A stretch of 61,203 bases of DNA from Acidobacteriota bacterium (GTDB lineage Bacteria > Acidobacteriota > Vicinamibacteria > Vicinamibacterales > UBA8438): contig JADFPE010000004.1 of assembly GCA_022562495.1 (NCBI GenBank), positions 1 through 61,203 of the forward strand, given 5' to 3'. The stretch's first letter is position 1; each line of letters opens with the position of its first letter. Positions 36,528 to 42,710 of the stretch are shown one piece after another. The notes beneath the pieces are model-generated. The model did not search any database. It worked only from the letters and a program-made list of their open reading frames with translations, and was not told the origin of the DNA. The translations under genes were made by a program, and so were the position numbers.

Positions 36528-39500
36528 CTACTGCTGTTCCGCCAGCGCCTTGAAGTATTCCTCGATCAGATCGCGGAACCCGGAGGGCACCTCCTCGCTC
36601 CCGGCCAGGAACAGGTCGTCGCTGTCGCCGTCGACCTCGCGCCGCAGCCGATACTCGAACCGCTTCAGCCCTTCGAGCACGAAGGTCTGCAGCCGCGCGA
36701 TCTCCTCCACATCCTGATACACGCGAGGGTCGTCGAGCGCCTGCATCGCCTGGATGATCTCGCTGAGGTCGCCTATGTCGCCGAGGTTCTCGGCGCGCAG
36801 GAGCCGCTGCAACTCTTGCGCCTCCATCCCGCGCTCCCGGAACTCGCGCTGCCACTGCCGGATGTCCCGCGGGTCGAACACGCCGGGTCGGCGGTTGCCC
36901 GGGCCACCCCCACCGAACGGGCCGCCAAAGATGTCACCCCCGCGTCCATCCGCAAACTGACCGCCCTGCTGACCGCCACCCTGCTGGCCTTGCTGCCCCT
37001 GTTGCCCCTGCTGGCCCTCTTGGCCCTGCTGATTGGCCGCCTGCTCGCCGCCCTGCTGGATCCGCTGCTCGAGGGACTCGAGCGAGCGCATCAGGTCCCG
37101 GGTGCGATCCAGCGCCTGCTCGCGCCCCGTGCCGCGAGAATTGCCCACCGCCTCGGCGGCCTCGGCCAGCTGACGCTGGAGGTCGCCGATGTCGCCGCCG
37201 ATCACCTCCTCGAACTCGCGGGCATACTCCGGCGAACGGGCCCGAATGAGGCCACGCGAATACCGGATCTTCTCCTTGAGCTTGCTCTCGCGGATGCCGT
37301 TGGCCGCTTCCTGTACCGCGCGCGACGCGTCACGCTCGTCGCGACGGAATTCGGCCGCCGTCGAGTCGAGCCCCCGCTCGAGATCGGCCACCTGCGCCTC
37401 CATCCGGTCCTTCCGCTCTATCAACCGTCGGATGCGCTCGACCCGCTCCGGGTCCGTCAGGTCGCCCAACCCGACGACCTGGTCGGCGATGTCCGCCTCT
37501 TCCGCGGCCAGATCGGCCGCCCGCCGCTGCGCATCCTCGATGTCACGCGCCAGGCGGCCGCTCTGCTCGCTCTGCAGCTGACGTTGCACCTCACGCAGCT
37601 GGTCGAGCGCCGCGCCGGCCTCGGCGAAGCCCTGGTTGTCGGCGTTGGCGGCCGCCCGCAGCATCGCGTCGGCCACCGCCTGCAGACGCCGTGCCGCCTG
37701 CATCATATCGGGCGACCCAAGCTCCCGCGCCAGCCGCTCGAGCCGTCGCGCCGCCTCTTCGGCCTCTTCGGCCAGCGCGCGCTGCGCCGCGCCGCCGCCG
37801 GCCTGCGCGGTCTGCCCGCCACGGGCCCGGCGCCGCTGCCGCTCGGCCTCCTGCTCCTGCCGGCGCGCCAGCTCCTTGAGCCGCTCCATCAGCTCGTCGA
37901 TCTGGTTGTCGGAGGTCTGCTGCTGTCCGCGCTGTACTATCTCGTACTGGTTCTGGAGCTTGTCGAGCTCGAGCTCGAACAGGTCGGCCAGATCCTCGGC
38001 CGCGCTCTGTCCGCCGCCCCCGCCGCCGCCGCCGCCGCCCTGTTGGACGAGCACTTCGTCGTACGCCTCCTCGGCGCGTTGCAGCTGCTGCAGCGCTCGT
38101 TGTTCCGCCGGCAGCGCCGCATCGACGTCCTGCTCCTGCAAGGCACTCTCGGCCGCTGCCATCTCGGTCGCGGCACGCGGGAGCACCGCGAGAATCGACC
38201 GGAACGCCGGGTCGGCCGGCATCACCCGGCTGTTCATCCGGCGCAACAGCGTCTCGACCTGTTCACGCAGCCGGCCCTGCGCCAGTGTCAGGAACACGAG
38301 GTTGTCGCGATAGTCCTCGTCGCTGAAGGTGTCGCGGTCGCGGATGACGTTGAAGGTCGCCGAGACGATTTGCCGCTGCGCCTCGGACAGCGCCCGGGCA
38401 GCGCCGCCACCACCACCGCCCCCGCCGCCACCCTGTGACTGGGCGGCGCGGAAGTCACGACGGAACCTGCGGATCTGGATGAAGTAGAGGTCGCTCTTGA
38501 CGACCCGGTTGACGCCTGCCTGGTTGTCCCCGGCGCTGCCGTAGTAGGAGACGAAGTCGCCCGGCTCGAGCTCGAACTCCTCGAGGAAGAACGTGTGCCC
38601 CGCCGAGATCTCCTTCAACCCGCCCGTCTCCGAGTTGAACAGGTTGATGGTCGTCTCCGGCCCGCCGTTGACTGCGTAGGTCAGCGTGAGCGACCGGACG
38701 CCGAAGTCGTCGTCGGCCCGCGCCTCGAGGAACACCTCCTCGATGGCGCTTGCCGTGGTGTCGCGCCCCGGCTTGACGAACATGACCGACGGCGGCTGGT
38801 CGGTCAGCACATCGACGGTGTACCGTGGCGACGCGTTCACCAGCTCGCCACTCGGGCCTTCCAGCTCGATCTGGTAGAACCCGTCCTCCTCGACCGTGAA
38901 GCTGGCCGTGAACGCGCCGTCGTCACGACGGATCAGGTCGGTCGCGGTCGTCTCGTCGAACACCAGCCGGCCGGCCGGCGTGCGCATCGTCGGGAACACG
39001 CGCAACCGCACCTCGGTGCCGCGCAGGACCGCGATGTCGCCGCCGTCCTGAATCAGGCGTGGCTCGAGACCGGTGTAGGCGGGGAAGTGATACTCGAACT
39101 CGAGGTGGTCGACATACGGCAGGTCGATGACGTCGAGAGTGAACGTCTCCGACTGGACGCCGACCGACTCGACGAAGTAGGTCGTCTCTTCACGCACGTC
39201 GAAGAGAAGCGTCTCGAACGCGCCGGGGGCCGCCGCCGCCCCTTCCTGGGGAATCATCGGCACCCGCTCGAACGGCGCGCTCGGGCTCGTGCGCATGAAC
39301 AAGTTGACGTCGCTCGAGTCGAACCCGATCAGCTGCGCGGTGATGGTCGGGTCAGACCCCCGGGCGATCGTGTCGTCACCCGGCAACACGTTGATGTGAT
39401 ACGGGCTGGCCGCCGCGAGACTGCCGGTCGGGGCCAGCAGCGCGGACGCTCCGTCACGCAGATACGACGGTCCGAAGATGAACGCAAGGAGCGCCATGGC

Positions 39501-40016
39501 CGTCACGCCGACCAAGTAGCCGGACGAGCGCCGGATCTTTTCGCGCTCCACTGCCGCCCCCCAGTCGAGCTCGCGGCAATGCTCCACGGCGTCCTGGATA
39601 AGCCGGTGGACGAGCGCCGGTGAATAGTCGGGACTGTCGGTCCGCTCCCCCCGCTTGGTTTCCTCGAGCGCGCTCAGCACCGCAGCCTGCAGCGACGGGT
39701 CGTGCTCCTCGAGATAGAGCGCCACCCGCTCGTCCGGAATCGCGCGCGCGAGCGGCCGGACCAGGAACCAGTACACCAGCCCGCCCAGCGTCAGATAGGT
39801 CAGGACCCGGAAGGCGATGACCGACCCCGCGGAGAACTTGAAGAACTCGAGGCCATACGCGGAGATGAGGAACGCCGCGACACCGGCCGCCGCCACGACC
39901 GCGGTCCCCCGTAGCGCCACGCGCAGCCGCCAGCGGTTGCGCACGCGCCGGATCACGTCAAATAGGTCGTCGCGACTGCCCGATGACCAGGGGGTTCTCC
40001 GCATGGTTGGCCTCAC
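36528..40016 (-). CDS. Large membrane-anchored DUF4175-like coiled-coil protein
   Basis: N-terminal TMs, beta-rich middle (YPAYTG-like motif, ADDDFGV), long Q/E/R coiled coils, poly-G and QQG tracts, and C-terminal VPSGFRDLIEEYFKAL. Confidence 0.85.
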   Translation of the reverse strand: MRPTMRRTPWSSGSRDDLFDVIRRVRNRWRLRVALRGTAVVAAAGVAAFLISAYGLEFFKFSAGSVIAFRVLTYLTLGGLVYWFLVRPLARAIPDERVALYLEEHDPSLQAAVLSALEETKRGERTDSPDYSPALVHRLIQDAVEHCRELDWGAAVEREKIRRSSGYLVGVTAMALLAFIFGPSYLRDGASALLAPTGSLAAASPYHINVLPGDDTIARGSDPTITAQLIGFDSSDVNLFMRTSPSAPFERVPMIPQEGAAAAPGAFETLLFDVREETTYFVESVGVQSETFTLDVIDLPYVDHLEFEYHFPAYTGLEPRLIQDGGDIAVLRGTEVRLRVFPTMRTPAGRLVFDETTATDLIRRDDGAFTASFTVEEDGFYQIELEGPSGELVNASPRYTVDVLTDQPPSVMFVKPGRDTTASAIEEVFLEARADDDFGVRSLTLTYAVNGGPETTINLFNSETGGLKEISAGHTFFLEEFELEPGDFVSYYGSAGDNQAGVNRVVKSDLYFIQIRRFRRDFRAAQSQGGGGGGGGGGAARALSEAQRQIVSATFNVIRDRDTFSDEDYRDNLVFLTLAQGRLREQVETLLRRMNSRVMPADPAFRSILAVLPRAATEMAAAESALQEQDVDAALPAEQRALQQLQRAEEAYDEVLVQQGGGGGGGGGGQSAAEDLADLFELELDKLQNQYEIVQRGQQQTSDNQIDELMERLKELARRQEQEAERQRRRARGGQTAQAGGGAAQRALAEEAEEAARRLERLARELGSPDMMQAARRLQAVADAMLRAAANADNQGFAEAGAALDQLREVQRQLQSEQSGRLARDIEDAQRRAADLAAEEADIADQVVGLGDLTDPERVERIRRLIERKDRMEAQVADLERGLDSTAAEFRRDERDASRAVQEAANGIRESKLKEKIRYSRGLIRARSPEYAREFEEVIGGDIGDLQRQLAEAAEAVGNSRGTGREQALDRTRDLMRSLESLEQRIQQGGEQAANQQGQEGQQGQQGQQGQQGGGQQGGQFADGRGGDIFGGPFGGGGPGNRRPGVFDPRDIRQWQREFRERGMEAQELQRLLRAENLGDIGDLSEIIQAMQALDDPRVYQDVEEIARLQTFVLEGLKRFEYRLRREVDGDSDDLFLAGSEEVPSGFRDLIEEYFKALAEQQ

Positions 40017-40079
40017 TTTGGCTGGGATGATCCGATCTTATCCCATTCTTGCGCTGTCGGCTGCAGGCCTCGGCCCGCA

Positions 40080-40554
40080 GGCAGTGGTCAAGTTTGGGCT
40101 CTTAGTCGAAAACAGCGAACAGCGTCGCGCCCGTCACAAACGCGCCCACCAAGAACGCGCCTCCGATTTTCGCGATCCTGGCTCGACCGCTCAGCAAGCT
40201 GCGCCCCACGCACAGAAGCGCCACCGCAGGGGCGGCGTAGCACGCCAACACGAGCGGCAGGACCCAGAGGGGTGTATTCGACTGCCCGAGCCGGTCCCAA
40301 TCTCGCAAGACAGAGCGAGAGACCCAGACAGGCAGAACGCCGCATACCAGCGAGACAACGATGGCGAGCCAGCCATAGGCCCGGCGTTCTGCGACGCTGG
40401 TCCACCAGCGCCATGGCGCTACGGGTCCCAGTCGAGGTGCATCATTGGCAACGATTTTTTGTTCCATGAGACTGTCCCGTCACGATCACGTATATCTGGC
40501 GTACTGCTCAAAGCATCCGAATCAGCCGCCGTCGCCTGACACTTGACCACTACC
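40080..40554. mobile_element. 475-bp non-autonomous mobile insertion cassette (IS1-like ends) with passenger gene
   Basis: IR GGCAGTGGTCAAGT (40080-40093) / ACTTGACCACTACC (40541-40554), 13/14 match. The 8-bp direct repeat GGCCCGCA lies at 40072-40079 and 40555-40562. No transposase. Confidence 0.8.
40102..40467 (-). CDS. Small 3-TM hypothetical membrane protein (cassette passenger)
   Basis: 121-aa ORF with three hydrophobic segments and lower GC; fills the cassette. Confidence 0.6.
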   Translation of the reverse strand: MEQKIVANDAPRLGPVAPWRWWTSVAERRAYGWLAIVVSLVCGVLPVWVSRSVLRDWDRLGQSNTPLWVLPLVLACYAAPAVALLCVGRSLLSGRARIAKIGGAFLVGAFVTGATLFAVFD

Positions 40555-40586
40555 GGCCCGCAGGCTTCAGGACGGCTGAATTCCTG

Positions 40587-40637
40587 GAAGTCGGCGAAGC
40601 CCTCCGGCCCCTCCTGTCTCCTGTCTCCTGCCTCCTG
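40587..40637 (+). repeat. GAAGTCGGCGAAGCCCTCCGGC plus (TCTCCTG)n composite repeat
   Basis: Family member immediately after the BatA/VWA stop. Confidence 0.75.
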
Positions 40638-40640
40638 CGT

Positions 40641-42710
40641 TCACTCATCCGCGTCGAGCTCGGTCCGCGACAGCCGGTTCGAGACGACGGTCTCGCTGGC
40701 CAGGAACCCGAGCGCGCCGATCAGCAGATACCACCACAATGTCTGACGCCGCTCGAGGTCCGCCGGTTGGAGCTCGCGCTCCGTCGTCACCGACCGGTCG
40801 CCCGGGACACGCCCGGTGGCGGCGGCGACCAGCTCCTGCGGGTCGACACGTTCGAGATTCGACTCGGCCAGATCGACGTTGACCGCGACCACCACCGGTG
40901 CGCTGTCGGGGGCGTCGGTGTCGCGAATCTCATAGAACCCCTGTTCGGCCAGCTCGATGAACCCGGCCCGCCCGTCGCTGCCGACGGTCAGCCGGTCCTC
41001 GGACGGGTCACGCACCACGAGATTCCCGCCGACAAGGTCGAGGTCCGCCGCGCCGGGATACTGCGCCAGGTCGAGGACCTGCCCCGCCGTCAGATAGGGC
41101 GTGGGCGGGGTGTAGGCTGCCAGATACTCCACCACCTTCTGCACGAACGGCAGATAGATCCCCTTGCGTGCGAAGTCGTTCCAGAAAGTGTCGATCGTCG
41201 AGGTCCAGATCAAGACCCGGCCCTCGCCGACGAGATGCTCCGCCATCGCCGCCGCGCCGTTGTCGAACCGGGCAAGCACCGCCGTCTCGGGCCGCGTGTC
41301 GAGCGGCCGATACCGGTAGAATCGCGGCGCCGTCAGATCGCCGCTGCGCGGCGTGCTGAACACTTCGAACACCGGGTGACTGAAGTCGACGAACCCCAGG
41401 GCGCCGCCGCGACCGTCCCGATCGGCTGGCTCGTCGAACGTGCCGGGCAGCAGATCGAGGTCGTCCCCCGGCCAGCGAACCCGTTCGCCAAGCACGACCC
41501 AGAGTCCGCCGCCCGACTCGACGAACCGCGTGATCGCGGCGCCGATCTGGCCACTGGGCAGCCCGACGTCGTTCAGCACCACCACCCTGGCCGTCGCCAC
41601 GTCGGCGGCGGTCACCTGGTCCACCGAACGGACCGTGACGCTGAACGAGGGGCTCGTCCCGATCGCCAGCGCGCTGCGCAGATACAGATTCGCGTCGGCG
41701 GCACCCGCGCTGCCGACGACCAGCACCGGCACGACATCGCCCGGGGCCACCGTGAAGTGGAAGACGTTGTCGTGCGGCAACGCATCCGCCTCGGCACGCA
41801 CCGAGACCGGCATGGCCGTGTCTTCCAGGGTGAACGGCGCGAACGTCACGGTGGCCGAGCTGTTGGCCTCGACCGTCACCGGCAACGACTCGAGCTCCCG
41901 ACCGTTCAGCTCGAGCGACACCCGCAGGTTCTCGACCGTCTCGTTACCGCGGTTCGCCAGCCGCGCGGTGACGATGGCGCGCTCACGGCCCGAGAAGAAG
42001 TCGCGTTGCACCGAGGCCCCGGCGACGAGCATATTGGCCGTCTCGTCCTCGTCCGCCACCGATATCGCGGTCAGAACGGTCCCCGGGGGCAGCAACGTGT
42101 TCGCGGCGCTGTCGACACCGATCCGTTGAAAATCGGTGATCAGAAACGCCTCGAGCCGTGGCTGATCCGAGTCCTCGAAAATGCCCTGCGCGAGCTGCAA
42201 CGCCGGGCCGTATCGCGTGGTGCCGGCGCCAAGCTCCGTTTGGTCGATCGTCGCGAGCAGGCTGGCCCGGTTCCTCGTCGACCGCGCCCCCGACTGTGCG
42301 CCGCTGTCGAAGAAAATAATCGTGGCCTGGTCGTCGGGCGCCAGATCGCGCACCACGTCCCGGGCGGCATCACGCGCGCGCTCCCACCGGTTGCCGTAGC
42401 CCATGCTGTAGGACCGGTCGACCAGGATCACGACTTCTCGCGAGCCACCCGTCACCGCCACCAGCACGGCCGACCGGAAGAAGGGTCGCGCGAAGGCAGC
42501 GATGAGCAGTGCCAGGGCGGCGCACCGCAGCAGCAACAGGAGCCAGTGGCGGACCCGCTGCCGGCGCAGCGAATGAAACGGGATCTTGCGCACGAACATC
42601 AGCGAGGGGAACTCGATGACCTCGGTGCGCTGGCGCTGGATCATGTGGATCAGGATCGGCACGCCGAGTGCCACGAGCGCCGCGAAGAACAGCGGGGTCA
42701 GAAAGGACAT
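40641..42710 (-). CDS. BatA N-terminal double-TM plus VWA domain protein
   Basis: MSFLTPLF...PILIHM...EFPSLMF, MIDAS DRSYSM, ITDFQ and a C-terminal TM. Confidence 0.9.
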   Translation of the reverse strand: MSFLTPLFFAALVALGVPILIHMIQRQRTEVIEFPSLMFVRKIPFHSLRRQRVRHWLLLLLRCAALALLIAAFARPFFRSAVLVAVTGGSREVVILVDRSYSMGYGNRWERARDAARDVVRDLAPDDQATIIFFDSGAQSGARSTRNRASLLATIDQTELGAGTTRYGPALQLAQGIFEDSDQPRLEAFLITDFQRIGVDSAANTLLPPGTVLTAISVADEDETANMLVAGASVQRDFFSGRERAIVTARLANRGNETVENLRVSLELNGRELESLPVTVEANSSATVTFAPFTLEDTAMPVSVRAEADALPHDNVFHFTVAPGDVVPVLVVGSAGAADANLYLRSALAIGTSPSFSVTVRSVDQVTAADVATARVVVLNDVGLPSGQIGAAITRFVESGGGLWVVLGERVRWPGDDLDLLPGTFDEPADRDGRGGALGFVDFSHPVFEVFSTPRSGDLTAPRFYRYRPLDTRPETAVLARFDNGAAAMAEHLVGEGRVLIWTSTIDTFWNDFARKGIYLPFVQKVVEYLAAYTPPTPYLTAGQVLDLAQYPGAADLDLVGGNLVVRDPSEDRLTVGSDGRAGFIELAEQGFYEIRDTDAPDSAPVVVAVNVDLAESNLERVDPQELVAAATGRVPGDRSVTTERELQPADLERRQTLWWYLLIGALGFLASETVVSNRLSRTELDADE

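Follow-up and report, generated by a model that had tools for sequence, protein, structure and literature searches.

A gene for a small membrane protein lies between two genes of a MoxR cluster in the genome of an acidobacterium of the order Vicinamibacterales, and the locus raises the question of whether that gene was brought there by a mobile element and, if so, by a transposase of which family. The window, meaning the whole stretch of DNA analysed here, comprises 61,203 nucleotides (contig JADFPE010000004.1 of assembly GCA_022562495.1) and belongs to a genome, G000, of 4.74 Mb in 339 contigs that is 89.7% complete. An initial annotation, made from the letters of the window, had proposed that a transposase-less cassette carrying one gene had been inserted at this point, and had linked it to the IS1 family. 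The explanation favoured here, with considerable confidence, is that positions 40080-40554 are a mobile insertion cassette (MIC), namely an element of MITE size that lacks a transposase and derives from a family of IS1-related DDE transposons common in Vicinamibacterales.

Anatomy and boundaries of the element

The ends, the target duplication and the open reading frame (ORF) of the element were read directly from the window sequence. The whole non-autonomous cassette, which is single-copy in G000, spans 475 bp (40080..40554, minus strand). Its left terminal inverted repeat (TIR), GGCAGTGGTCAAGTTTGG (40080..40097, plus strand), begins with a core, GGCAGTGGTCAAGT (40080-40093), the 14 nt of which pair with the right end, and nucleotides 15-17 of this TIR (TTG) agree with the family consensus described below. 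The right TIR, ACTTGACCACTACC (40541..40554, minus strand), was located by direct reading and by motif and repeat searches; its reverse complement, GGTAGTGGTCAAGT, is identical to the left core at 13 of 14 positions, and past these 14 nt the left end goes on with ...TTTGG and the right end with GTC. On either side lies an exact copy of the 8-bp target-site duplication GGCCCGCA (40072..40079 and 40555..40562), found by direct reading and by the repeat search and of the same length as in the family. The interior is occupied by the passenger gene P0001 (40102..40467, minus strand), which encodes 121 amino acids with three membrane helices and has its stop codon 8 nt from the left end, and by a leader of 73 nt (40468..40540, minus strand) that runs from the right end to the ATG. 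The leader was characterized by alignment with homologous cassettes and by a promoter scan, and the 16 nt preceding the ATG are partly conserved among those cassettes. The ends, the exact duplication, the length and the three-helix ORF had all been described in the initial annotation, and each was recovered at the same positions.

P0001 is the sole element-filling ORF of at least 100 amino acids, and a transposase-domain search found no such domain in it, in agreement with the earlier description of the element as transposase-less. The window-derived loci L001-L004 and L024 were likewise absent from the tblastn matches of the transposase of L109. The atypical composition that had been claimed for the ORF was also borne out, its third-position GC content (GC3) being 0.71 vs 0.79-0.93 in four neighbouring genes, and the GC content of the element being 0.62 vs 0.67 for the genome.

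A repeat search of a 1.6-kb stretch around the element returned a direct repeat of 12 nt, CGGCCCGCAGGC (40071-40082 and 40554-40565), and a pair of inverted arms (40077-40093 and 40541-40557). Because the direct repeat extends to 12 nt, the junction is ambiguous by 1-3 nt on the window sequence alone; the 8-bp duplications of related elements favour the boundary given above, which is that of the initial annotation. Chance repeats of 10-13 nt are abundant in the same GC-rich 1.6-kb stretch, so that the repeats within the window are by themselves modest, suggestive evidence. With two mismatches at most allowed, the window contains the end motif four times vs 0.32 expected, a number reached in none of 100 shuffles.

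The insertion site

The insert lies in an intergenic spacer within the MoxR cluster and in operon orientation, since the genes on both sides and the passenger are all on the minus strand. Domain searches identified the downstream flanking gene (36528..40016) as encoding a DUF4175 protein of 1162 amino acids and the upstream flanking gene (40641..42710) as encoding a protein of 689 amino acids with a BatA N-terminal domain and a VWA domain; further upstream lie genes for a DUF58 protein and a MoxR AAA_3 ATPase, and all the genes of the cluster are on the minus strand. The cassette occupies the degenerate left arm of a heptamer-array and hairpin repeat. The core of this repeat (40587..40637, plus strand) lies outside the cassette in the target neighbourhood and belongs to a dispersed repeat, and its right arm, (CTCCTGY)n, extends over about 40610-40640. 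A location inside a heptamer repeat between two genes of the MoxR cluster, as initially annotated, was thereby seen again.

The dispersed repeat, at 40563-40645 in the window, consists of three to six heptamers CTCCTGY preceded by a short GC hairpin, GGCGAAGCCCTCCGGC. It gave 78 BLAST matches on 53 contigs of G000, some copies having an inverted heptamer array on the opposite side, and metagenome-contig depth rose to as much as 90 over it (40602-40642). Separately, the BatA/DUF4175 junction of G013 (L120, G013:C1:3667300-3673400) holds an insert of 5.4 kb with genes for an MBOAT protein, a DUF459/GDSL protein with a peptidoglycan-binding domain, and a PIN protein; in the family, insertions seem to have landed in this spacer more than once.

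Distribution among relatives and strains

Of 41 related genomes, 33 gave a match to a 1.5-kb query that spans the site, and the insert was not found at this locus in any of the 41 genomes searched except G000. In the four congeneric genomes, G001-G004, the flanking genes are 80-91% identical, the two flank matches are separated by 22 bp (G001), 34 bp (G002), 52 bp (G003) and 37 bp (G004), and nothing corresponding to the insert lies between them. G001 and G003 possess an uninterrupted, diverged heptamer-array and hairpin repeat at the site; in G002 and in G004, the closest relative, the whole heptamer repeat is also missing. No orthologous empty site with exactly one copy of GGCCCGCA was found in G001-G004, because the spacer itself has diverged. 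Of the empty-site comparison suggested in the initial annotation, the absence of the insert from four congeners with closely spaced flanks was therefore obtained, but the single-copy target sequence was not. In this comparison, the 475 bp are clearly lineage-specific.

The runs holding this stretch of the window are marine-sediment and subsurface metagenomes. The insertion is found at the identical site in two metagenome contigs, L032 and L033, which match 681 nt over both junctions at 97.8-97.9% identity, and contigs from runs X1, X14 and X15, which come from different studies, span the left junction and the element. One contig of run X17 joins position 40068 to 40593 with 23 other letters between; with a depth of 2 and 34 letters on the shorter side, at a likeness threshold of 90, it might conceivably come from a relative without the insert, and the gaps in the cover of X17 over parts of the element are not evidence of absence. 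Runs X3 and X4 bear a metatranscriptomic label but may be DNA, and runs X19 and X20 contain 0.04-0.05 of the words. The left end reads as the ...GACCACGT type in L032, L033 and X14, and X14 has a further substitution, A>C, at position 40549. Such substitutions in the ends between strains would be expected of an element that has ceased to be selected for mobility.

The passenger protein

P0001 contains three hydrophobic stretches, and its confident AlphaFold model (mean pLDDT 79.5, from a 24-sequence alignment) places long helices at residues 25-55, 69-93 and 96-120. Twenty-four relatives, all unnamed and with 58-98% identity, were retrieved from a collection of 5.8 billion proteins, and a profile search of 1.84 billion representatives returned only 17 matches at E <= 0.001. 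The gene is present in six of the 41 related genomes and in four of 301 genomes sampled from the order, all four in one family, and in that sample the passenger is far rarer than the ends that enclose it. P0001 is a member of a tiny orphan family. The C-terminal half to two thirds of the protein is well conserved, including a QSNTP.W motif and a terminal TLFAVFD, and dN/dS against six homologues ranges from 0.24 to 0.63; P0001 is a real gene under moderate purifying constraint.

A profile search of the passenger, which had been put forward in the initial annotation, was carried out and yielded no function, from either the domain libraries or a fold search. Pfam gave only a sub-threshold match to the PspC transmembrane family (E 0.0037; 17.4 bits vs a cut-off of 27), and NCBIfam, PADLOC and PHROGs gave no match. 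The nearest Atlas clusters are unnamed membrane proteins, and Foldseek against the PDB returned nothing at E <= 0.001, the best match being Mrp subunit G (E 0.49).

A scan of 39950-40700 detected no sigma-70-like promoter and one weak terminator-like site, which lies inside the ORF, and Rfam gave no match in 39900-40750 at E <= 1. Given the operon orientation and the lack of a recognisable promoter of its own, the passenger is probably transcribed by read-through from the MoxR operon.

Homologues of the passenger in other contexts

Homologues of the passenger occur in at least ten different contexts, several of which retain ends of the same type at an equal spacing. One clear family end, CCCAAACTTGACCACTTCC, lies 27 nt past the stop codon in L034, L037 and L038; GGTAGTGGTCTAGTTTGG lies beside a passenger paralogue in L027 (from G003), and GGTAGTGGTCAATT lies upstream of the homologue in L039. 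Two degenerate ends each are present in L035 (about 470 bp) and in L041 and L042 (about 504 bp). The duplications of these other passenger cassettes are unclear, with agreement at 6 of 8 positions in L035 and none in L041, and no IS1-like transposase was found in the examined DNA of L025-L044. The recurrence of a compact unit of end, ORF and end in unrelated places is the main reason for regarding the short cassette itself as the transposing unit.

The closest genomic homologue, in G014 (L025/L031, G014:C1, about 5422463-5425762), is 64% identical over the whole protein and 72% identical over residues 22-121. Its neighbours are a tyrosine recombinase (Phage_integrase) on one side and an IS91-type transposase (Y2_Tnp with Zn_Tnp_IS91) on the other, and it has no IS1-type ends. 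The neighbouring tyrosine recombinase prompted consideration of an integron cassette, a reading that was rejected because it is a DDE transposase that leaves inverted ends with an 8-bp duplication, and because the G014 copy lacks such ends.

Three further loci are recorded here as observations. In L036 (798-827), a passenger homologue has its ATG just 16 nt past a family end in 'downstream' orientation, CCCAAACTTGACCAGTACC, an arrangement that looks like a second element having entered the leader of the cassette or taken its place. In L027 (1845-1965; G003:C103, at a contig end), the paralogue has a perfect family end, and immediately before the paralogue stands the C-terminus of an IS3-type (rve_2) transposase, where the contig stops. 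The end in L121 (G003:C18) has no informative neighbour.

A family of elements with the same ends

The exact sequence GGYAGTGGTCWAGT is present in 58 of 301 genomes sampled from Vicinamibacterales, and both ends of the cassette agree with the 14-nt motif searched for. A control in which the pattern was read backwards gave about 74 matches vs about 130 for the real pattern (hand count); since this control is non-negligible, weight was placed on paired, duplication-flanked structures and not on motif counts. Convergent pairs of ends on one contig numbered 32 (hand count), of which 9 span at most 47 bp and 23 span 475 bp to 5.3 kb. Eighteen long inverted pairs of 0.5-5.3 kb from 15 genomes, together with one short pair and one lone end, were examined.

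Exact target duplications lie outside the ends in 15 of the 18 long pairs, 14 of them of 8 bp and one, in L108, of 9 bp, and none was found in L102, L103 or L104. Although left unconstrained by the search, positions 15-16 of the ends are TT in 35 of 36 cases and position 17 is G in 27 of 36, and the ends found are therefore homologous, with a 17-nt consensus of GGYAGTGGTCWAGTTTG. A transposase gene is intact in 13 of the 18 elements, broken in three (in two pieces in L106, in three pieces in L115 and split by a nested IS in L114) and absent from two. The transposase-free pair, L105 (556 bp) and L116 (2427 bp, containing only a fusion of a DNA methylase and an Mrr-type nuclease), both have target duplications. 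Cargo varies from element to element and includes HTH_3 with Peptidase_M78, N6_N4 methylase with Mrr, HNH, PIN and P63C proteins, as well as several ORFs that fall in no family. The initial annotation had named as support for its proposal other copies of these ends, copies with different passengers, and full elements with a transposase, and all three kinds were recovered. These elements form a family of IS1-related, cargo-carrying transposons with autonomous, decayed and transposase-free members.

Conflict-type cargo was noted in L099, L103, L104, L112, L116, L101, L106 and L110 (from G040, G014, G016, G153, G201, G291 and G060), and some of the cargo-bearing elements hold nested IS of the IS1595, Mutator and DDE_Tnp_1 types. 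There are also elements of 31-32 bp that consist of ends only, at L072 1501-1532 (G062:C154) and L089 1501-1531 (G066:C2), with exact 8-bp duplications (GTGACTCG and CGATTCCG, respectively), and a short pair of 47 bp (L071/L117). Such end-only pairs may have arisen by deletion from inserted elements, or they may be minimal units capable of transposition.

The decayed members bear on a first alternative, in which a full-length transposon with both transposase and passenger inserted at this site and later lost its transposase by internal deletion, with no movement in trans. Decay of a transposase in place is seen in L106, L115 and L114, and internal deletion after insertion is the easiest account of the TIR-only elements L072 and L089. 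The cassette itself, however, leaves no room for a transposase remnant, as all that it holds besides the ends is an ORF of 366 nt with 8 nt on one side and 73 nt on the other, and no transposase-bearing element was seen to contain the passenger. At least three unrelated contexts hold cassettes of about 470-504 bp with the same ORF, which would call for separate deletions that each stopped at identical boundaries. Internal deletion at this locus is therefore rather improbable.

Identity of the transposase and the source of mobility

The family transposase is a DDE protein encoded by a single ORF of about 275-321 amino acids, located at one end of the element and reading outward. In Pfam it matches DDE_Tnp_IS1 (PF03400) with 22-36 bits against a cut-off of 24.1, which most members pass, over model positions 84-127 only, and DDE_Tnp_IS240 more weakly. 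In NCBIfam the best match is the IS1 model (NF033558), with 59-68 bits and E of about 1e-18, which lies below the cut-off of 100, and the IS6 model (NF033587) comes second with 19-36 bits vs a cut-off of 125. At least 8000 database relatives exist, many of them named 'IS1 family transposase' by JGI. As the Pfam cut-off is narrowly passed and the NCBIfam cut-off is missed, 'IS1-related' is a safer label than 'IS1'. The link to IS1 drawn in the initial annotation from the resemblance of the ends was in this way strengthened in part, the ends, the 8-bp duplications and the best transposase match all agreeing with IS1, but full membership by the NCBIfam threshold was not reached.

These matches also bear on a second alternative, in which the cassette would be derived from an IS6/IS26 element and moved by a resident IS6-family transposase. 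As described in PMC7986276, IS6-family elements have ends of 15-20 bp with GG tips and with the motifs cTGTt and caaa, and generate 8-bp duplications. The cassette resembles them in its GG tips, short ends and 8-bp duplication, G000 contains ten matches to PF13610, and the true IS6 ends of G000 are similar to those of the cassette, such as GGACATTGTCAAGTTGGGCT at C229:15126. These resident ends nonetheless differ at 4 of the first 14 positions, and the cassette has GTGGT in place of cTGTt, a motif that is missing from its ends, and CAAG in place of caaa. Ends identical to those of the cassette enclose an IS1-like transposase, intact or broken, in 16 of the 18 elements and an IS6 transposase in none, and the transposases so enclosed are not IS6-like, scoring well below the IS6 cut-off and higher against IS1. 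Cross-mobilisation by IS6 is accordingly very unlikely. A candidate shared end, GGCAGTGGTGTCGG, which recurs in G000 about 70 nt upstream of the matches to the IS6 domain, was rejected because it lies inside the coding sequence of the IS6 transposase (peptide ...RQWCRTFG...). Finally, that chance repeats merely surround a lineage-specific native gene has next to no probability, since, common as 10-13-nt repeats are in this stretch, the same ends occur with duplications in many genomes and the insert is absent from four congeners.

Under the preferred reading, an IS1-related cassette, the mobiliser would be the transposase of an autonomous relative. PF03400 has no match in G000, and the sole trace there is a C-terminal relic of about 95 amino acids (C259:2429-2716, minus strand) that is 48-59% identical to the full proteins and has neither an N-terminal part nor recognisable ends nearby. 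An intact cognate transposase was not found in G000, at 89.7% completeness, or in the four congeners, which contain short fragments only. Metagenome-assembled genomes (MAGs) often lack repeated IS copies, so that the missing transposase in G000 is not proof of absence. The lack of an intact cognate transposase and the single copy of the cassette in G000 nonetheless count against the preferred reading. Mobilisation of the cassette in trans is inferred, and the presence of just a transposase relic in the assembly, together with the drift of the ends between strains, indicates that the present copy is probably immobile.

Discussion

The ends, the duplications, the transposases and varied cargo of related elements, and the absence of the insert from close relatives all support the interpretation of the initial annotation that the element is a mobile cassette carrying a gene. 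In the proposed course of events, an autonomous element with the same ends would supply the family transposase, which would bind both TIRs of about 17 nt. The spacer that separates the batA-VWA and DUF4175 genes would be cut with an 8-bp stagger and the cassette joined in; repair would duplicate GGCCCGCA, and one gene, for the 121-amino-acid, three-helix membrane protein, would thereby be delivered in the orientation of the MoxR operon.

MIC231 of Bacillus cereus is reportedly an example of a mobile insertion cassette. PMC3129680 defines MITEs, MICs and IS that carry passenger genes, and PMC3913671 concerns qnrD-bearing mic elements of Proteeae. The structural properties by which MICs are recognised were found in the cassette, which, like MIC231 and the qnrD mic elements, possesses TIRs of an IS family, no internal transposase, an unrelated passenger and a duplication of the parental length, here 8 bp; for both, a cognate transposase acting in trans is the presumed mobiliser. 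The cassette differs in that its parent is IS1-related and not of the IS231/IS4 type, in that its host is an uncultured marine-sediment acidobacterium, and in that its cargo is an orphan membrane protein and not a resistance or metabolic gene. Bacterial MITEs resemble the cassette as well: MITEAba12, according to PMC6382973, is a small non-autonomous element whose ends and duplication length match those of its parent IS and which is thought to be mobilised in trans by the parent's transposase. Such bacterial MITEs carry no gene, whereas the cassette is almost entirely one gene.

The relationship to IS1 can likewise be placed against known elements. The ends of an IS1-family ISAba3-like element, in the same source (PMC6382973), comprise 24 bp, GGTGGTGTTTCAAAAAGTATGCTG (GGTGGTG...), with 8-bp duplications. 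The cassette ends, GGCAGTG and GGTAGTG, begin with GG as do IS1-family ends, and the duplications, of 8 bp in the cassette and of 8 or 9 bp in 15 of the 18 family elements, have the 8-9 bp of IS1; the DDE transposase, best matched by PF03400 and NF033558, adds to the likeness. IS1-family ends read GGnnnTG in ISfinder's family table, and classical IS1 encodes a short InsA/InsB pair with a programmed frameshift. The family described here differs in its single ORF and in the size of its elements, which are 2-5 kb with cargo, and a single-ORF transposase with no InsA/InsB pair excludes classical IS1 but not the wider IS1 family. Siguier, Gagnevin and Chandler are said to have described in 2009 longer IS1-family members with passenger genes, termed 'transporter IS'. 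No literature was found on ISMhu11 or on the IS1 family in Vicinamibacter.

A broader reading, which is speculative and for the present doubtful, is that the IS1-related family would work in Acidobacteriota of sediment and soil as a modular shuttle for cargo, with one 17-nt end serving autonomous elements, gene-only cassettes and 31-bp end-only units and with cargo enriched in conflict genes; the orphan protein might then be a small conflict or exclusion effector kept through read-through of the MoxR operon.

The cassette is of a kind already known and adds no new mechanism. It provides a concrete case of one accessory gene arriving in the interior of a conserved operon of an uncultured acidobacterium, in a vehicle that goes unreported by gene callers and IS annotators. 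As the parent family is abundant and its cargo is varied and often defence-like, its 17-nt ends can be used in practice to search Vicinamibacterales genomes for cargo genes.
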